10,932 nt of DNA from a virus: the UHGV virus genome UHGV-1694526; one strand, given 5' to 3'. Every line of letters starts with the position of its first letter. The stretch's first letter is position 1. The notes under the pieces are model-generated. The model was given only the letters and a program-made list of their open reading frames with translations. It ran no database searches and was not told the origin of the DNA. Below are positions 2,009-10,790 of the stretch, piece after piece. The position numbers and the translations under genes are program-made.

Positions 2009-3229
2009 ATGTCTGATGTAAATGAGATCCTGAAAAAAGTCAGCGCCAGCATTGAAGAGGCGACCGGAAAATTCAACGCGAAAGCAGAAGACGCACTCAA
2101 AGAGGCGCAGAAGTCAGGCAGGCTGTCAGAAGAAACAAAAGCTGCCGTTGATAAAATGGCTTCTGAGTTCAATGCGCTGCGTGAAGCTGAAAAAACCCTG
2201 AAGGCCGCAATGGGCGAACTGGAGCAACATGTTGCCCAGATGCCGCTGGCCAACGCTGCAAAGGTGATCGAGACCGTTGGCCAGACCGTCATCAGCAGCG
2301 AAGCACTGAAAGCATTCGCGGCAAGCGTGGAAGGCGGTAAGCGCGTCAGCGTACCGGTGAACGCCGCGCTTATTTCCACGGATGTCGTCACCGGCGTGGT
2401 TGAACCGCAGCGTCTGCCGGGTATCGACACCGCACCGAAACAGCGCCTTTTCATCCGCGATCTGATCGCGCCTGGCCGCACCTCAGCACCGGCCATCTTC
2501 TGGGTGCAGCAAACCGGCTTCACCAATGCGGCGAAAGTTGTGCCGGAAGGCACCGCCAAGCCGTACAGCGATATCCAGTTCGCCACGCAGATCACGCCGG
2601 TCACCACCATCGCGCACATGTTCAAGGCGTCCAAACAGATTCTGGATGACTTCGCGCAGCTGCAGTCCACTATCGACGCCGAGATGCGTTACGGACTGAA
2701 GTATGTGGAAGAACAGGAAATTCTCTTTGGCGACGGTACCGGTGCGCACCTGAAAGGCATCGTTCCGCAGGCCTCGGCATACGATGCTGCGTTCGCCGTA
2801 GAACAACAGAACGGCATCGACGATCTGCGCCTCGCAATGCTGCAGGCTCAGCTGGCACGCTTCCCGGCTTCCGGCCACGTCCTGCACTTCATCGACTGGG
2901 CGAAGATTGAACTCACCAAAGACACGCTGGGCCGCTATATCCTGGCGAACCCAGCGACCCTGACTGGCCCTACCCTTTGGGGCCTGCCGGTGGTAGCAAC
3001 CGAAGCCGCAGCATTCCAGGGCAAGTTCCTGACCGGTGCATTCAACGCTGCGGCACAGCTGTTTGACCGTGAAGACGCCAACGTGGTGATCTCCACTGAG
3101 AACGCCGACGACTTTGAGAAAAACATGATCTCGATTCGCTGCGAAGAGCGTCTGGCCCTGGCGGTGAAACGCCCTGAAGCGTTCATCTACGGCTCCTTCA
3201 CTGCGCCTGCAGCAGGTGGCGGCGCGTAA
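2009..3229 (+). CDS. Major capsid protein, HK97 fold, with an N-terminal coiled-coil delta (scaffolding-like) domain
   Basis: Seen: 406-aa ORF with GGAG SD; the first ~100 aa are K/E/A-rich and helical. Position immediately after the prohead protease and size/composition are typical of HK97-family capsid proteins. No separate scaffold gene is present. Confidence 0.8.
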   Translation: MSDVNEILKKVSASIEEATGKFNAKAEDALKEAQKSGRLSEETKAAVDKMASEFNALREAEKTLKAAMGELEQHVAQMPLANAAKVIETVGQTVISSEALKAFAASVEGGKRVSVPVNAALISTDVVTGVVEPQRLPGIDTAPKQRLFIRDLIAPGRTSAPAIFWVQQTGFTNAAKVVPEGTAKPYSDIQFATQITPVTTIAHMFKASKQILDDFAQLQSTIDAEMRYGLKYVEEQEILFGDGTGAHLKGIVPQASAYDAAFAVEQQNGIDDLRLAMLQAQLARFPASGHVLHFIDWAKIELTKDTLGRYILANPATLTGPTLWGLPVVATEAAAFQGKFLTGAFNAAAQLFDREDANVVISTENADDFEKNMISIRCEERLALAVKRPEAFIYGSFTAPAAGGGA

Positions 3230-3254: not shown

Positions 3255-3270
3255 TTTCACAGGTGGGAAA

Positions 3271-3483
3271 ATGAAACTGATCGCACTCAAACCGATTTAT
3301 TTCGGCGGTACCGTCGTTACTGAAGGGCTTCCGCTGGAAACTCTGGAACAGCACGGGCGCGAGCTCATCAAGAAAGGTTATGCGAAGCTCGAAGAATCAG
3401 AAAATCCTGCAAAGCAGGAACAGCAGCAGGAACAGCAGCAGGAACAGCCGGAATTAAAAGCGGAAAAGAAGGCGAAAAAATAA
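3271..3483 (+). CDS. Hypothetical small protein (70 aa) with a QEQQ repeat and Lys-rich C-terminus
   Basis: Seen: ORF with a GGTGGG SD-like sequence upstream; its stop overlaps the next start (TAATG at 3481-3485), consistent with translational coupling into the connector gene. Function unknown. Confidence 0.45.
   Translation: MKLIALKPIYFGGTVVTEGLPLETLEQHGRELIKKGYAKLEESENPAKQEQQQEQQQEQPELKAEKKAKK
3415..3447 (+). repeat. In-frame 12-nt tandem repeat (CAGCAGCAGGAA x2 perfect, with partial flanking copies) encoding QEQQQEQQQEQ
   Basis: Seen directly in the sequence at 3415-3450. Confidence 0.7.
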
Positions 3484-3809: not shown

Positions 3810-3872
3810 TTATGTCTTGTTCTGGATGCGCGCAACGGCGCGAGTGGATAAAAAAGTGGGCAAAAATAGCTT

Positions 3873-4070
3873 ATGAACGAGCAACTGGTAAACGAACTGA
3901 TAGCAGTGATACGGGAACAAATCACAGCGCAGAGGGAGCAGACGGAAGCGATAAGCCGTCTGGCTGAATCAAATATGGCGCTTTGCGATATCATTATCCA
4001 GTCGCTGGCTGGTGAACTAGATGAAACTGCAGAGCAACAAACCTATCTGAGCGGTAAACCCAGGGGGTAA
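3873..4070 (+). CDS. Hypothetical small helical protein (65 aa)
   Basis: Seen: ORF whose stop is 1 nt before the next ATG (4072), with AGGGGG as SD for the downstream gene. Its own SD is weak or distant. It overlaps a 51-codon ORF (3812-3967) in another frame that has the better SD. Confidence 0.4.
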   Translation: MNEQLVNELIAVIREQITAQREQTEAISRLAESNMALCDIIIQSLAGELDETAEQQTYLSGKPRG

Positions 4071-4071
4071 C

Positions 4072-4404
4072 ATGCAGGCCGGGAAATTGTGCCACAGGAT
4101 TACTCTGCAGGAGCCAGTAAAAGTGCAGAACCCGACAACGGGAGCCGTAATTAATGCCTGGCGAGATGTTGCGACTGTCTGGGCCGAAGTTTCACCATTG
4201 TCAGCACGTGAATTTATTGCTGCGCAGGCTTCTCAGGGTGAAATAACCACCCGTATTGTTATTCGCTACCGTGCCGGAGTTACCAGAAAACATCGCATCT
4301 TGTTTCGTGGTGCTGTGTATAACATCCATGGTGTTCTGCCCGATCCAAAAAGCGGACGTGAATACCTGACGCTTCCCTGTTCTGAGGGTGTTAATGATGG
4401 CTGA
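4072..4404 (+). CDS. Head closure / head-tail joining protein
   Basis: Seen: 110-aa ORF. Motif layout (HRITLQ...W..V..VWAEV.PLS.RE...AQ......ITTRIVIRYR) matches phage head-tail joining proteins as I recall them; synteny supports it. Confidence 0.7.
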   Translation: MQAGKLCHRITLQEPVKVQNPTTGAVINAWRDVATVWAEVSPLSAREFIAAQASQGEITTRIVIRYRAGVTRKHRILFRGAVYNIHGVLPDPKSGREYLTLPCSEGVNDG

Positions 4405-4931
4405 TAGTGTTGAGGTAAGTCTTACCGGGCTTGAATCACTTCTTGGGAAAATGGAGGCCGTATCAGAAGTCACCCGTAATAAAGCCGGTCGGTTTGCATT
4501 GCGTAAGGCGGCAAACATTAGAAGGGATCGGGCCAGACGCGTCACGCGTTGATGATCCTCTGACTAAAGAAGCAATCCACAAAAATATCGTCGCCAGCTT
4601 CAGCAGCAAGCAATTCCGCAGGACAGGTGATCTGGCATTCCGTGTCGGGGTAATGGGCGGTGCCAGGCAGTATGCAAATACAAAGGCAAACGTCAGAAAA
4701 GGCAGAGCGGGTAAAACATACAAAACCTCAGGAGATAAAGGCAATCCAGGAGGAGATACCTGGTACTGGCGTTTTCTTGAGTTTGGTACTGAGCACACAT
4801 CAGCGCGGCCTATCCTCCGACCTGCAATGAACGGCGTAGATAATGACGTGATTAATGTTTTTTCTACGGAAATGGGAAAGGCTATTGATCGCGCTATCAG
4901 GCTGGCCACGAAGAAAGGAACCACTGCATGA
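4394..4931 (+). pseudogene. HK97 gp10-like tail component gene, apparently split by a frameshift (N-terminus in one frame to TGA 4550-4552, C-terminus in another to TGA 4929-4931)
   Basis: Seen: ATG 4394/4397 with a GAGG SD opens a frame reading MADSVEVSLTGLESLLGKMEAVSEVTRNKAGRFALRKAANIRRDRARRVTR*. A second frame, open from 4398, becomes protein-like only from about 4540 (ASRVDDPLTKEAIHK...YWRFLEFGTEHTSARPILRPA...) and has no credible start of its own. The ORF-track start at 4431 is a TTG with a nonsense-looking N-terminus. Confidence 0.5.
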
Positions 4932-5293
4932 TTGCCCCTATTTTTTCTGTTTGCGCGTCGAGTCATGAAGTCACTGACTTACTCGGAAGCAATCCGGTAA
5001 GAATTTATCCTTTCGGAATTCAGGACGACAACGTGGTCTATCCCTATGTGGTCTGGCAGAACATCACCGGTTCTCCAGAGAACTACATTGCCCAGCGCCC
5101 TGACGCAGACTTTTTCACGCTGCAGGTGGATGCATATGCCGACACCGTGGATGAAGTGATTGCCGTGGCTACTGCGCTGCGGGATGCCATTGAGCCGCAC
5201 GCGCATATCACGCGCTGGGGCGGACAGGAAAGAGACCCCGAAACAAAGCGCTATCGCTACTCATTCGATGTTGACTGGATAGTCACTCGATAA
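4928..5293 (+). CDS. Putative tail completion / tail terminator-like protein (DUF3168-like)
   Basis: Seen: 121-aa ORF starting in an ATGA overlap with the upstream stop. The RIYP...VYPYVVW pattern and position just upstream of the major tail gene support the call. Family assignment is from memory. Confidence 0.55.
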   Translation: MIAPIFSVCASSHEVTDLLGSNPVRIYPFGIQDDNVVYPYVVWQNITGSPENYIAQRPDADFFTLQVDAYADTVDEVIAVATALRDAIEPHAHITRWGGQERDPETKRYRYSFDVDWIVTR

Positions 5294-5308
5294 ACGTATT
5301 ATTCAACC

Positions 5309-5331
5309 ACCGGCCTTGAGCCGGTTTTTTT
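5309..5331 (+). terminator. Intrinsic-terminator-like hairpin (ACCGGC-CTTGA-GCCGGT) followed by T7
   Basis: Seen: GC stem 5310-5314 / 5320-5324 with a 5-nt loop, then seven T (5325-5331), in the 54-nt gap between the tail-completion and major-tail genes. Confidence 0.5.
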
Positions 5332-5347
5332 ATGACCGGAGATAACA

Positions 5348-5848
5348 ATGTCTGTATTGACGCAAGGTACGCAGCTCTTTGTGCTCGTAAAAGGCGAGGT
5401 GAGCGAAGTTGAATGTATCACTGCATTTTCACCCGGCAGCAATCCGGCTGACCAGATTGAAGACACCTGTCTTTCTGAACGCTTTGATCGCAGCTATAAG
5501 CGTGGTCTTCGAACGCCTGGCACAGCATCACTGACGCTTAACGCTGATCCTAAAAATACCAGCCACATCATGCTCTACAACCTGTCCATTTCGGACGACG
5601 AAGAGGATCAGGACCTGACCTTCGCGATTGGATGGTCAGACGGAACCGCATCGCCAACTGCGGCTGAAAATGGTGCATCCGGTGCAGTCGATGGCCTGGT
5701 GCTACCTGATAGCCGCACATGGTTCGTATTCAAAGGCTATGTGTCCGACTTCCCGTTTGATTTTGCAGCAAACACGGTTGTTTCTACTTCTGCATCTATC
5801 CAGCGCTCCGGCTCTGCTGTATGGGTGCCAAAAGTCGTGACCCCATAA
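5348..5848 (+). CDS. Major tail (tube) protein
   Basis: Seen: 166-aa ORF with GGAG SD 6 nt upstream. Called mainly by synteny (immediately upstream of the G/GT chaperone pair and tape measure) and by a size typical of siphovirus tube proteins. Confidence 0.6.
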
Positions 5849-5852
5849 AATC

Positions 5853-5868
5853 AGGGCGGCAACGCCCT
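5853..5868 (+). promoter_or_regulatory. Stem-loop AGGGCG-GCAA-CGCCCT just after the major tail gene stop
   Basis: Seen: perfect 6-bp inverted repeat with a GNRA-type loop, followed by an AT-rich stretch and the SD of the next gene. Confidence 0.3.
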
Positions 5869-5886
5869 TATTAATCAGGATTAATA

Positions 5887-6372
5887 ATGAAATTAACACT
5901 TGATGCACTCAAGGAGTCCGGCGCGTTTACCGGTCGCCCGGTTGAGAAAGAAATCACCTGGACGCAAGGCGATAAAAAAATCACCGCGACCGTGTATGTT
6001 CGCCCGATGGGTTATCACACAGCAACGTCCGATGTGCTGGCTTTTGGTGGTAAGGTCGATGGTGTGGCAGGGCGTATCGCCGCATCCATCTGCGATGAAC
6101 ATGGTAAACCCATCTTCACCCCGGCTGACATTACTGGTGAGGCAGATCCTGAACGTGGTGCACTGGATGGCGGCCTGACGGTAGCACTGCTTCTGGCCAT
6201 TCAGGAAGTTAACGATCTGGGAAAGACTTCGAGCTCAGCGCCGAAGACGAATTCTGGTGCGAGCTCGTCCTCAACGGAATCGGAGGCAGAACAATCGCCG
6301 AAGCGCGGGAAGTCCTCTCATTCAAAGAGTCCCAACTCTGGGCAAAGTACCGGGAACGATACGGGAGTCTGA
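5887..6372 (+). CDS. G: Tail assembly chaperone, gpG-like (zero-frame product)
   Basis: Seen: 161-aa ORF directly upstream of the tape measure, containing the heptamer GGGAAAG (6219-6225) with zero-frame codons GGA AAG. The C-terminal zero-frame tail is Ser-rich and low complexity. Confidence 0.8.
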   Translation: MKLTLDALKESGAFTGRPVEKEITWTQGDKKITATVYVRPMGYHTATSDVLAFGGKVDGVAGRIAASICDEHGKPIFTPADITGEADPERGALDGGLTVALLLAIQEVNDLGKTSSSAPKTNSGASSSSTESEAEQSPKRGKSSHSKSPNSGQSTGNDTGV

Positions 6373-6548
6373 ACCCTATGTTGCGGGTTGAGTGGGGTGC
6401 CGGGCTGGTGAGCAGCATGATAGCCAACGTTAACAGAGACCCCAAGCGCCCACCATTCAACCCGACCGATTTCACACTTCACTTTACCAAAGTCAAAGCT
6501 GCTGATGGACCAATCTCATTAGAGGAAGCCAGAGCCAGCTGGACATAA
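5887..6548 (+). CDS. Tail assembly chaperone frameshift fusion, gpGT-like (-1 ribosomal frameshift at 6219-6225; about 220 aa)
   Basis: Seen: the -1 frame is open from the slippery site to TAA 6546-6548 and encodes a protein-like domain (DFELSAEDEFWCELVLNGIGGRTIAEAREV...) with no start codon of its own, ending 20 nt before the tape measure ATG. Established: this G/GT arrangement is conserved in long-tailed phages. Confidence 0.7.
6219..6225 (+). promoter_or_regulatory. -1 programmed ribosomal frameshift slippery heptamer G GGA AAG
   Basis: Seen: exact X XXY YYZ heptamer in the correct phase within the gpG-like ORF; identical to the heptamer known from lambda G/GT. Confidence 0.75.
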
Positions 6549-6567
6549 TGCCGCCAACGGAGAGTTT

Positions 6568-8988
6568 ATGGCTTCCAAATCACTGGGCACGCTGACGATC
6601 GACCTGATTGCCAAAGTGGGCGGTTTTGTCTCAGGCCTCTCGCAGGCTGAGCGAGCTTCACAAAAATGGCGTAAGCAGGTAAAGGAGGATGCCGCTGCCG
6701 CTGCAGCTGCCATGACCGGATTCGCAACAGCAGTCGGGGCTGCAGCCATCGGAGCCGGAGTGGCGGGGTATAACCTGCTCAAAACCACTTCACGTCAGAT
6801 TACCGAATCAGACCGCTGGGCAAAGTCACTTAACATGTCCACGCAGTCCCTGTTAGCCTGGCAATATGCTGCAGAAAAAGCAGGTGTTTCCGGCGATCAG
6901 ATGGCCGATATCTTTAAAGATGTCGGAGACAAAATCGGTGATGCCGTTCTTAATAAATCTGGTGAGGCGGTCGGTGCGCTGGACGCTCTGGGTTTGTCGG
7001 CTAAGAAACTGGCCGGAGAATCTCCCGACAAGCAACTCCTGGCTATCAGCGACGCACTGGAGAAAGTTAAGTCCAACGCCGAGAAGACTACCATCCTGGA
7101 GAGTCTGGGTAATGACCTGTCAAAGATGCTGCCGCTCCTGGACAATGGCAGTGAAAAGCTGCGTCAGTATATGGATGCCGCGAAGAAGTTTGGTGTGGCG
7201 CCCGATGACGCAGATATTGAAAAGCTGGTCAGAGTCAACGCCCTGTTTGAGGATATGGAGACGCAGGTCAACGGCGTCAAAATTGAACTTGCTGCAGGGC
7301 TCGCCAGCGTAGATTTGAGTGGGCTCCAGAAGTCTATTGGAGATATGGGGGATGTATTTAAAGACCCGGCTGTTATTCAGGGTCTGACTGATCTGGTTGG
7401 TGGGGTAGTGGACCTTGCCACCTGGCTGGTAAGGGTAGGAGCCGAGGCCGGAAAGCTGATAGACCAGTACAAAGGTGGGAGTTCGGTCGGCCTGAATGCC
7501 TCCATTCCAGAAATTGAACGGCGCATCAAGAACCTGAATGCAGATCTCGATGATAAAGGCATACTGGCGAGTTTCAACAGAATAGGTATGGACGTATCCG
7601 GTAAGGAGGCCGAAAGGGCTGAGCTCCAGAGGCGACTGGCCTTTTTGAGAAACTCCCAATCTACTCTACCGGAAATAAAACTGCCCGAGCCAGTCAAAAC
7701 AAACTATACCCTTGGCGCCGGGGAAACAAACGGTAAGCCGCAAAAAAATACCTCTGGTCAGAAACTGGATTCAGCGTTTAAAAGCGCTGAGCGCAGTTAC
7801 ATGCGTCAGATTGAGCTGATCGATACCACCGGCAAAAAAACTGCTGTGGTGACCGAGCAGCAAAAACTGCAGTTCGATATAGCTGACGGCAAGTTGCAGG
7901 GGCTTAACGAAACCCAGAAGAAACGACTTGCGTCTCTGGCTCAGGAAGTTGATCGCCTTAATGCCGTCAAAAAAGCTAATGAAGAAAACGCGAAGGTAGC
8001 GGCGTTCGTGGCAAATCTGCAGGAGCAGAACGAGAATGCACGTGCAGATTTGGGCGTGGATATTCAGGGGGCCGGACTCGGTGACAAGCAGCGTGAAAGG
8101 CTGAGGGAAAGGCTGAGTATAGAGCGCAGTTATCTCGATCAGCAGCGCGATCTGCAAAAGCAGTATCAGTCAGGAGATATCAGCCAGACAGTTTATGACC
8201 GCGAAACCCAGGCATTAAAGGATGCGCAAGCTGAGAGGCTGGGCATCCAGGAGGATTATTACAGTCAAATTGATGCGCTGCAGTCTGACTGGGTGACTGG
8301 CGCCAGAGACGGTCTCGCTGACTGGGTAGATGATTCAACTAACTATGCGACGCTGGCGGCGGACGCTATGAAAAGCGCGCTTTCCGGTATCAGCAGCAAT
8401 ATCGTCGACATGCTCAACGGCAATAAAGCGAGCTGGAAAGACTGGGGTGTCAGTGTTCTGAAAATCATCGAACAGGTGATGGTTAACATGATGATCGCCA
8501 ATGCAGCCAGCTCGATAGGCTCATTGTTCGGTGGTGCCGCATCGTCTTCCGCCAGCAGCGGTACTGCGATTCAGTCCTACGGGGCGAGCCTGCAATTCAA
8601 CGCCAAAGGCGGCGTTTACTCTTCTGCCGATCTCAGTCAGTACAGTAACTCTGTCGTCAGCTCTCCAACACTGTTTGCCTTTGCCAAAGGGGCCGGATTG
8701 ATGGGGGAGGCTGGGCCGGAGGCTATTATGCCACTGACCCGCGCCGCTGACGGATCGCTGGGCGTGCGTGCTATGGGAATCTCAGGCTTAACACCGGGTG
8801 GTAGTAGTGCTCCTCAGGTCAGTATTCAGATTGATGGCAATGGGAATACCCAGACTCAGGCTAGCGGTGGATATGAGCAATTCGGGCGGGAGGTAGGTAG
8901 TTTTGTTGATCGGCGATACCGCGAGTTGATAGGCCGTGACCTTTCACCCGGTGGCGCGGTCTGGAATCTGGCAAAAGGAGGGCGGTGA
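6568..8988 (+). CDS. H: Tail tape measure protein (806 aa)
   Basis: Seen: very long ORF with GGAG SD, directly after the G/GT pair, with a helical K/E/Q-rich middle and a hydrophobic Gly/Ala/Ser-rich C-terminal region (LFAFAKGAGLMGEAGPEAIMPL...) resembling the lambda gpH C-terminus as I recall it. Confidence 0.9.
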   Translation: MASKSLGTLTIDLIAKVGGFVSGLSQAERASQKWRKQVKEDAAAAAAAMTGFATAVGAAAIGAGVAGYNLLKTTSRQITESDRWAKSLNMSTQSLLAWQYAAEKAGVSGDQMADIFKDVGDKIGDAVLNKSGEAVGALDALGLSAKKLAGESPDKQLLAISDALEKVKSNAEKTTILESLGNDLSKMLPLLDNGSEKLRQYMDAAKKFGVAPDDADIEKLVRVNALFEDMETQVNGVKIELAAGLASVDLSGLQKSIGDMGDVFKDPAVIQGLTDLVGGVVDLATWLVRVGAEAGKLIDQYKGGSSVGLNASIPEIERRIKNLNADLDDKGILASFNRIGMDVSGKEAERAELQRRLAFLRNSQSTLPEIKLPEPVKTNYTLGAGETNGKPQKNTSGQKLDSAFKSAERSYMRQIELIDTTGKKTAVVTEQQKLQFDIADGKLQGLNETQKKRLASLAQEVDRLNAVKKANEENAKVAAFVANLQEQNENARADLGVDIQGAGLGDKQRERLRERLSIERSYLDQQRDLQKQYQSGDISQTVYDRETQALKDAQAERLGIQEDYYSQIDALQSDWVTGARDGLADWVDDSTNYATLAADAMKSALSGISSNIVDMLNGNKASWKDWGVSVLKIIEQVMVNMMIANAASSIGSLFGGAASSSASSGTAIQSYGASLQFNAKGGVYSSADLSQYSNSVVSSPTLFAFAKGAGLMGEAGPEAIMPLTRAADGSLGVRAMGISGLTPGGSSAPQVSIQIDGNGNTQTQASGGYEQFGREVGSFVDRRYRELIGRDLSPGGAVWNLAKGGR

Positions 8989-9326
8989 TGGCTATAGAAA
9001 CATTCAGCTGGTGTCCGCGCCCGAACGCGGAGCAGGAAGTGACATTCCGACGGCGCACCGCGCAGTTCGGTGACGGATATCAGCAGGTTTCCGGCGACGG
9101 GATTAATCCCCGCTCGCAGAAATGGACTCTCCAGTTTACCGGTACCGAAACGTATATCGGGGCGATTAAAGACTTTCTCGATCGCCATGCGGGCGTGACG
9201 GCGTTTCAGTGGCGCCCGCCGCTTGAGCCTCTCGGGCTTTACCGCTGCGACACCTACACACCAACGCCACTTGGTGCCGGGTTATTTAATCTTTCTGCAA
9301 CTTTTGAACAGGCCTACAAACCATGA
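8988..9326 (+). CDS. M: Minor tail protein M (lambda gpM-like)
   Basis: Seen: 112-aa ORF from ATG 8988 with AAAGGAGGG SD, overlapping the tape measure stop (TGATG). Contains the FGDGYQQ and FQWRPP motifs and a FEQ C-terminus, matching lambda gpM as recalled. The ORF track begins at GTG 8985; ATG 8988 is preferred. Confidence 0.85.
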   Translation: MAIETFSWCPRPNAEQEVTFRRRTAQFGDGYQQVSGDGINPRSQKWTLQFTGTETYIGAIKDFLDRHAGVTAFQWRPPLEPLGLYRCDTYTPTPLGAGLFNLSATFEQAYKP

Positions 9327-10078
9327 GTCTTAACGCAGATTTTCAGAAGCTCGAACCTGGCGATGTGGTCAGGCTTTTCGAAGTGGATGGCACGGCATTT
9401 GGTACAGGTGATGTGCTGCGATTTCACAGCTACAGTCTTGCGCACTCTGAAGCCGAAATTATCGCTGCTGGCGGTGATGAAAATAAACTGCCAGCAAAAT
9501 CTATCTGGTGGCAGGGTGAGGAGTATAAAGCGTGGCCATGCCAGATTGAGGGGATCGAAGCTTCAACCTCGGGAAGTAGTGCCCAGCCAAAACTTTCGGT
9601 TGCTAACCTCGACAGTTCGATCACCGCGCTTTGCCTGGCTTACGACGATATGCTGCAGGCGAAGGTGACGATACATGACACCCTTGGTAAGTATCTCGAT
9701 GCGAGAAACTTCACCGGAGGCAATCCGACAGCCGATCCGACCCAGGAGAAGCTGAAGGTTTTCTACATCGATGCAAAGAGCAGTGAAACCAATGAAGTTG
9801 TTGAGTTCACACTATCCAGCCCTATGGATCTGCAGGGGCTGATGATACCTACCCGCCAGCTTCATTCCCTGTGTACCTGGTGCATCCGGAATAAATATCG
9901 TACCGGCGACGGATGCGACTATGCCGGCACCCGCTATTTCGATAAAAACAACAACCCGGTAAGCGATCCGTCGCTGGATGAATGCAATGGCACGCTGACG
10001 GCCTGCAAACTCCGATTCGGCGAAAATAACGAACTCTCGTTTGGTGGCTTCCCGGGCACGTCTTTGATCAGGAGTTGA
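9323..10078 (+). CDS. L: Minor tail protein L (lambda gpL-like) with a C-terminal cysteine cluster
   Basis: Seen: 251-aa ORF starting in an ATGA overlap with the M stop. C-terminal Cys pattern CTWC...GCDY...DECNG...TACK. Synteny M-L-K. Confidence 0.85.
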   Translation: MSLNADFQKLEPGDVVRLFEVDGTAFGTGDVLRFHSYSLAHSEAEIIAAGGDENKLPAKSIWWQGEEYKAWPCQIEGIEASTSGSSAQPKLSVANLDSSITALCLAYDDMLQAKVTIHDTLGKYLDARNFTGGNPTADPTQEKLKVFYIDAKSSETNEVVEFTLSSPMDLQGLMIPTRQLHSLCTWCIRNKYRTGDGCDYAGTRYFDKNNNPVSDPSLDECNGTLTACKLRFGENNELSFGGFPGTSLIRS

Positions 10079-10079
10079 T

Positions 10080-10790
10080 ATGCGTCAGAAAACCATCGAT
10101 GCGATTATGGCGCATGCTGCAGCTGAATATCCTCGTGAGTGTTGCGGCGTGGTGGCGCAAAAGAGCCGGGTAGAGAAATATTTTCCATGTAGTAACCTCG
10201 CTACCGAGCCGACAGAACATTTTCACCTGTCGCCAGAAGACTATGCAGCTGCTGAGGACTGGGGTACGGTGATCGCCATCGTTCACAGTCACCCTGACGC
10301 CACTACGCAGCCGAGCGAACTGGATAAAGCGCAATGCGACGCAACGCTTTTACCCTGGCATATTGTGAGCTGGCCGGAGGGGGATTTACGCACCATCCAG
10401 CCGCGCGGAGAACTGCCGCTGCTGGAGCGTCCGTTTGTGCTTGGACACTTCGACTGCTGGGGGCTGGTAATGAGCTATTTCCGGCAAACGCATGGTATCG
10501 AGCTCCACGATTACCGGGTGGATTATCCCTGGTGGGAAAACGACTATCCGGACAACTTCTATCAGGATTGCTGGTATGAGTGCGGATTCCGTGAATTCGA
10601 CGGGCCACCGAAACCCGGCGATATGGTGATCATGCAGGTCCAGGCTGATAAGTGGAATCACGCGGGAATCCTGCTGGAGGGCAATATGCTGCTGCACCAC
10701 CTGTATGGACATCTGAGCCAGCGTGTGCCGTATGGTGGCTACTGGCAGGAAAGGACGATGAAGGTTCTACGTTACAAATCTCTGTGCTAA
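10080..10790 (+). CDS. K: Tail assembly protein K (lambda gpK-like): N-terminal MPN/JAMM domain plus C-terminal NlpC/P60 domain
   Basis: Seen: 236-aa ORF with GGAG SD. JAMM motif H-S-H-x7-S-x2-D (HSHPDATTQPSELD) with upstream Glu (EYPRECCGVV); NlpC/P60-type Cys (HFDCWGLV) and His (WNHAGILL). Confidence 0.85.
   Translation: MRQKTIDAIMAHAAAEYPRECCGVVAQKSRVEKYFPCSNLATEPTEHFHLSPEDYAAAEDWGTVIAIVHSHPDATTQPSELDKAQCDATLLPWHIVSWPEGDLRTIQPRGELPLLERPFVLGHFDCWGLVMSYFRQTHGIELHDYRVDYPWWENDYPDNFYQDCWYECGFREFDGPPKPGDMVIMQVQADKWNHAGILLEGNMLLHHLYGHLSQRVPYGGYWQERTMKVLRYKSLC

Follow-up and report, generated by a model that had tools for sequence, protein, structure and literature searches.

An apparently unprogrammed frame disruption in the HK97 gp10-like tail completion gene of a lambdoid siphophage contig

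The sequence analyzed here (the window) was one entire contig of 10,932 nt (ENA ERZ508014, NODE_2142_length_10932_cov_6.324643), a metaSPAdes-style contig from a low-coverage metagenome assembly with a k-mer coverage of 6.324643 (approximately 6.3). Its genes make up the head-to-tail structural module of a lambdoid siphophage. The left part carries the genes for the portal (cut by the contig end), a ClpP-type protease, the major capsid protein, and DUF7210; the middle part carries the genes for a head-tail connector, a 65-aa ORF, the head closure protein, and a broken tail completion gene; and the right part carries the genes for the tail terminator, the tube protein, a G/T chaperone pair, the tape measure, and M-, L-, and K-like proteins. 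The contig begins in the portal gene, ends shortly after the K-like gene, and includes no flanking host DNA; its status as a prophage is therefore unproven. The coordinates of the tail completion gene, of its neighbors, and of the changes within it are shown in Table 1.

The broken gene (4394-4931) was located directly upstream of the terminator gene and two genes upstream of the tube gene, the position expected for its family; the order of tail completion protein, terminator, and tube protein is typical of siphophage tail modules (PMC11099176, Table 1). The head closure gene ends in a stop codon that overlaps the tail completion start (ATGATGGCTGA), and the start codon of the terminator gene overlaps its stop (ATGA, 4928-4931), with AGGA 8 nt before the terminator ATG. 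The 65-aa ORF (3873-4070; HK022 gp8 equivalent) between the connector and head closure genes was conserved in all close relatives and matched no Pfam family. Two opposite-strand ORFs (4201-4545 and 4463-4966) also matched no Pfam family and were treated as shadow ORFs. The tail assembly chaperone pair was formed by a G-like ORF (5887-6372; Phage_TAC_13), followed in the -1 frame by a T-like ORF (6378-6548) that scored 24.7 bits against Pfam Phage_tail_T, slightly under the cut-off of 25.9. According to the HK022 annotation, the T part is made through frameshifting; no obvious X XXY YYZ heptamer was seen by eye in 6280-6372.

Table 1. Features at the tail completion locus (positions in the window)
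Feature	Position	Strand	Description
Head closure / head completion protein (HK022 gp9 equivalent)	4072..4404	+	Intact; Pfam Phage_HCP, E 6.9e-33; annotated relatives
N-terminal fragment, tail completion protein (HK97-gp10-like)	4394..4552	+	52 aa; residues 1-48 homologous
Substitution T>G	4521	+	Private; ancestral frame ATA -> AGA (Ile43Arg)
5-nt deletion junction	4536..4537	+	Ancestral AAGCA lost; 1-nt microhomology (A); frame break
C-terminal ~130 residues of tail completion protein	4539..4931	+	+1 frame, ASRVDDPLTKEAIHK...KKGTTA*; no start codon in usable position
Substitution A>C	4547	+	Private; synonymous in ancestral frame (CGA -> CGC)
Tail terminator / tail-to-head joining protein	4928..5293	+	Intact; Pfam Tail_completion_gp17, E 1.3e-14
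Major tail tube protein	5348..5848	+	Pfam Phage_TTP_11, E 8.4e-66

The translation of the first ORF ends ...AANIRRDRARRVTR*, and its last residues (RVTR, followed by TGA at 4550-4552) are an out-of-frame read-through past the deletion. In the +1 frame, an open stretch from 4431 to 4931 encodes ...GPDASRVDDPLTKEAIHK... and continues to the C-terminus. Only two start codons were found in this frame, TTG 4431 and ATG 4653. The TTG lies inside the N-terminal coding part and is followed by 36 unrelated residues, and the ATG, the first in the downstream frame, would yield only a 92-aa stub. Because neither codon is usable, the claim of an earlier note on this DNA, that the C-terminal part has no start codon of its own, held in substance. 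The gene caller annotated the 52-aa ORF only and left 4553-4927 uncalled.

In the protein alignment, residues 1-48 of the first ORF and the second frame from 4539 were collinear with the single 179/180-aa gp10 of HK022 and mEp235, the second frame matching from ...ASRVDD to the C-terminus. Against phrog_5 (tail completion or Neck1 protein), the N-terminal fragment matched at profile positions 86-132 (E = 1.3e-4), and the C-terminal fragment matched at positions 137-218 (E = 1.5e-12). Because these two matches are collinear, the fragments represent one gene and not a chance arrangement. Against PF04883 (HK97-gp10_like; cut-off, 21.4 bits), the intact HK022 orthologue scored 33.7 bits (profile positions 3-78) and the conceptual join of both fragments scored 21.4 bits, exactly the cut-off; taken alone, the C-terminal fragment scored 14.3 bits, which is below the cut-off, and the N-terminal fragment had no Pfam match. 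The two ORFs are thus confirmed as parts of one gene, and the collinear alignments to gp10 of HK022 and mEp235 and to phrog_5 bear out the earlier proposal of a single gp10-like gene in two frames. Members of the family are single uninterrupted ORFs of about 112-255 aa. Here, the gene is split at 4536/4537, and it is a disrupted copy of a gp10-family member, not a functional member as written.

When the DNA was aligned to HK022 and mEp235, AAGCA (5 nt) was missing between 4536 and 4537, with a placement ambiguous by one A. The earlier note had placed the switch of frame around 4535-4545, in agreement with this break, and had taken it as consistent with a 1-nt insertion or a 2-nt deletion; the phase of that proposal was correct, but the size was not, the alignment showing a 5-nt deletion. 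T was present at 4521 in 13/13 motif-bearing relatives and in 12/12 full-length relatives. The substitution at 4547 turns ACGCGT-C-ACGAGT into a perfect ACGCGT-C-ACGCGT, and it may be a repeat-templated or quasi-palindrome-templated change. In the region 3821-10768, the 5-nt deletion was the sole indel relative to 12 relatives, and the only private changes across this 6.9-kb alignment were the 4521/4536/4547 trio and four substitutions at 9868-9913. We estimated the chance of two private substitutions at ≤16 nt from the deletion to be approximately 3e-5. The T>G substitution, the deletion, and the A>C substitution are one linked event, spanning 27 nt.

Four possible origins of this event were considered; three were rejected, and the fourth found no support. 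Slipped-strand loss of a tandem pentamer was rejected because AAGCA is not tandemly repeated in the ancestor. As to a mutation templated from elsewhere in the window, the 11-mer at the junction (GGGCCAGACGC) has a second copy at 3148-3158 (minus strand), but the similarity stops at these 11 nt, and approximately 0.17 such matches are expected by chance. The transfer of a patch from a diverged gp10 homologue was rejected because two 80%-identical IMG/VR sequences (L003 and L008) carry the ancestral T...AAGCA...A. Finally, the 27-nt span is close to the size of a protospacer, as would be expected of a CRISPR-escape footprint; when an 88-nt ancestral query was searched against 5,426 complete E. 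coli genomes (E ≤ 10; E. coli complete genomes only), no 32-nt spacer-like match was found, and only gp10-family genes were recovered.

The intact version of the gene was found in approximately 17 near-identical sequences (4 phages, 6 other IMG/VR contigs, 1 gut metagenome contig, and 6 E. coli prophages). A pattern search in which 0-5 bases were permitted at the gap, and either base at 4547, matched 10 IMG/VR contigs and 1 gut-metagenome contig, all of which had the 5-base version with T and A; the same search of GTDB representative genomes gave no match. The combination T...AAGCA...A was present in 13/13 other motif-carrying sequences, and the 543-nt intact version was found in seven complete E. 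coli genomes (prophages). All matches of the 88-nt ancestral probe, in 26 E. coli genomes, were inside annotated gp10-family genes and were ungapped over the site; 20 of the 26 were homologues at just 73-76% identity. Nine HK97-type tail-module loci sharing the DUF7210 protein had a single 149-aa HK97-gp10_like gene in the slot. By these comparisons, the split state is derived and private. In a large assembly collection, an exact copy of the 52-aa product was found on one contig only. Exact copies of the window's protease and major capsid protein were likewise confined to this contig, so that finding the 52-aa product in no other assembly is uninformative either way.

The remaining 13 genes of the contig were full length, and no indel broke the frame of any of them. 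Codon identity with the E. coli QL57EC prophage was complete in the tape-measure gene (807 codons) and in the G gene, approximately 2.9 kb of the contig was identical to a finished genome, and the differences in diverged genes were mainly synonymous. The closest full-length relatives were phage mEp235 and the QL57EC prophage (approximately 96.6-96.7% identity), and the only upstream indels relative to these two were an intergenic gap at 3255 and an in-frame insertion at 3413, each of 12 nt. From 3821 rightwards, the contig showed 98.5-99.5% identity to HK022, HK140, mEpX2, and several E. coli prophages. Apart from the lesion cluster, the contig is accurate. The gene shares with the pseudogenes of decaying prophages a frame disruption relative to intact orthologues, but no further decay (frameshifts, truncations, or insertion sequences) was found in its neighbors. 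Because the remaining 13 genes are undamaged, the lesion, if real, is very recent.

The comparison with relatives also showed the mosaic structure of the contig. In the portal region (1-1000), approximately 19% of bases differed from mEp235 and QL57EC, and in the capsid gene <1% differed, with a mosaic boundary within 1-1500. HK022, HK140, and mEpX2 matched at ≥98.5% only from 3821 rightwards, with a mosaic boundary at approximately 3810-3821. Similarity fell after approximately 10768, and the ends of the contig lie in or near mosaic junctions. The gap at 3255 is in a T-rich intergenic stretch, and the insertion at 3413 (AGCAGGAACAGC) is inside the DUF7210 gene (3271-3483); the exact 70-aa DUF7210 protein was widespread (141 blocks of the collection), where it was joined to HK97-type tail modules. 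The tape-measure gene (6568-8988) was identical codon for codon to that of the prophage of E. coli QL57EC (swine, China), in which the head genes differ, and this identity suggests that the tail module was shared between the two very recently. The four private substitutions at 9868-9913 fell within a 46-nt stretch inside the L-like minor tail gene, all at third codon positions, and this patch looks like a short recombination tract from a lineage outside the comparison set.

The split of the tail completion gene is almost certainly an unprogrammed lesion of some kind, either a mutation or an artefact, and everything besides these two readings is improbable. All tests supported the view of the earlier note that the frameshift reflects an error or an inactivating mutation, a programmed shift being much less likely. 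On balance, we favor a real, recent, complex loss-of-function mutation. Unless a k-mer is repeated, a 5-nt deletion can enter a de Bruijn assembly only when reads support it, and no repeat >11 nt was found across the junction when the window was searched. This reading is favored because the assembler needs reads, because the junction has no such repeat, and because the contig is otherwise clean; we infer that the lesion is present in biological DNA and not just in the reads or the assembly. It is disfavored by the finding of the allele on exactly one contig, with a k-mer coverage of 6.3, and by the occurrence of three changes in 27 nt, which is unusual for spontaneous mutation. In addition, if free phage particles were the source of the DNA, one would not expect the majority allele to have lost an essential virion gene.

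An artefact of the sequencing, the library, or the assembly, with an intact gene in the real phage, is somewhat less probable. One erroneous or chimeric read, or one family of PCR duplicates, at a dip in coverage could have become the only path in the assembly graph. The allele comes from just one metagenome contig of low coverage (cov 6.32), the three changes were unique among all public relatives scanned and are as tightly clustered as errors in one bad stretch of a read, and an essential gene is destroyed while all its neighbors are perfect. The two substitutions, T>G and A>C, belong to the A:T>C:G class that is typical of Illumina errors. However, multi-base deletions outside repeats are rare in Illumina reads, and no repeat ≥12 nt that could provide a shortcut in the graph was found. 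The closing of a gap on a 5-nt-shifted overlap by the assembler was rejected: when the ancestral sequence was compared by hand with itself shifted by 5 nt, no overlap was found, and an overlap of tips shifted in this way failed to reproduce the sequence. Also against an artefact, the rest of the contig showed no random errors, approximately 2.9 kb matching a finished genome exactly and third codon positions accounting for every other private substitution.

Programmed frameshifting is very unlikely because no conserved two-frame layout, slippery motif, stimulatory structure, or usable restart codon was found. The two-frame layout was present in 0 of approximately 17 near-identical sequences and in 0/20 diverged E. 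coli homologues, and the nine HK97-type loci were single-ORF. Neither an X XXY YYZ motif nor a site of the CUU UGA / CCC UGA type was found in 4520-4552. The predicted RNA fold of 4535-4640 did not differ from shuffled sequences as a downstream stimulatory structure would (z = -0.25), and no Rfam match was found in the window. The AAGGG at 4522-4526, a candidate Shine-Dalgarno-like element, is also present in the intact relatives.

A leaky form of recoding is similarly hard to credit. Under this scenario, with UGA (4550-4552) in the A site, the peptidyl-tRNA-Arg would slip by -2 from CGU (4547-4549) to CGC (4545-4547), the next codon would be GUU (4548-4550) in the downstream frame, and full-length protein would be made at a low level. 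Frame 0 does read ...ACG CGT TGA, and the hypothetical product would be RDRARRVTR-VDDPL, compared with RDRARSNASRVDDPL in the wild type. The CGC of the -2 register is cognate for the same tRNA-Arg as CGU (ICG anticodon). It is equally doubtful that the A>C substitution at 4547, which makes this CGC, acts as a second-site partial suppressor of the deletion, although this would account for its travelling with the deletion. The scenario leaves T>G at 4521 unexplained, the arrangement was present in no relative, and neither a downstream stimulatory structure (z = -0.25) nor an Rfam element was found. Moreover, -2 slippage is rare and inefficient in bacteria, and CGC-GU beside a stop codon easily arises by chance. 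If the scenario were true, the phage would remain viable even though an essential gene has lost 5 nt; very little protein is needed per virion, the 80alpha tail holding a single monomer (PMC11661146).

The least credible reading takes the two ORFs as distinct conserved genes or as a naturally occurring split-gene variant. The alignments refuted it, and the test that the earlier note had set against its own proposal, separate conserved genes, failed. Apart from the annotation of just the 52-aa ORF by the gene caller, nothing supports this reading, and against it both parts are covered collinearly by a single profile (phrog_5; PF04883), a lone ORF (149-180 aa) was seen in every relative examined, the exact 52-aa product was on no other contig in the collection (as was true of the capsid and protease), and the downstream part has no start codon.

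Under the favored reading of an unprogrammed lesion, the 5-nt deletion would shift the frame by two bases beyond codon 48, and translation would stop at TGA 4550-4552, giving a 52-aa peptide, and the remaining ~130 residues would not be made. This product is probably little more than an N-terminal helix, and the gene as written is presumably a null allele. The early stop at 4552 could also reduce expression of the terminator, owing to the ATGA overlap. From its sequence, the gene is assigned to the tail completion protein of an HK022/mEp235-type lambdoid siphophage, in the class of HK97 gp10, SPP1 gp16.1, and lambda gpZ. Known tail completion mutants are not viable. Approximately 96% of SPP1 particles without gp16.1 were non-infectious, and lambda particles without gpZ had an infectivity approximately 500-fold lower (PMC11099176; PMC11661146). 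In 80alpha, the protein is a monomer inside the neck (PMC11661146). By analogy with the SPP1 and lambda mutants, particles would be assembled but would be mostly non-infectious unless the protein were supplied in trans. If the lesion is real, the contig would represent a freshly disabled phage, dependent on a helper for the protein in trans.

Frameshifts in phage genes are common, as are indel errors in contigs, and this is an ordinary case either way, a mutation or an error, with no new mechanism. The significance is small. Annotations of the locus should call it a frameshifted pseudogene or flag a possible sequence error; neither a pair of genes nor a recoding site is an appropriate label. 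Such cases may be recognized by a private indel with adjoining private substitutions in an otherwise perfectly conserved module.

The locus is not a new system but a disrupted copy of a well-known phage protein that is intact in HK022, mEp235, and many prophages. The closest known proteins were gp10 of HK022 (NP_037671.1) and gp10 of mEp235 (YP_007111586.1); the coding DNA was otherwise identical to mEp235, and position 4913 also differed from HK022. The E. coli prophage proteins WP_016063022.1 and WP_015980107.1 ('HK97-gp10 family putative phage morphogenesis protein') were close relatives, too. The locus shares with HK022 and mEp235 its neighbors (head closure on one side; terminator and tube on the other), the overlaps of start and stop codons, and, outside the lesion, the protein sequence. 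It differs from them in the loss of AAGCA after 4536, in T>G at 4521, and in A>C at 4547, the 179/180-aa ORF being replaced by a 52-aa ORF and a start-less remainder. HK97 gp10 (the reference protein of PF04883), SPP1 gp16.1, lambda gpZ, and 80alpha gp51 occupy the same genomic slot, whereas their sequences are only distantly related and the gene here is disrupted; a sequence search of solved structures with the intact orthologue gave nothing meaningful. The -1 frameshift of the lambda G/GT type, the -2 frameshift of Mu tail genes, and the +1 shift of prfB resemble the locus in having a gene in two frames (a tail-module gene in the phage cases), and a genuine G/T-type pair lies approximately 1 kb downstream in the same window. 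In contrast to these programmed frameshifts, the layout described here is unconserved and has no motif or stimulatory element, and a private deletion explains the shift fully.
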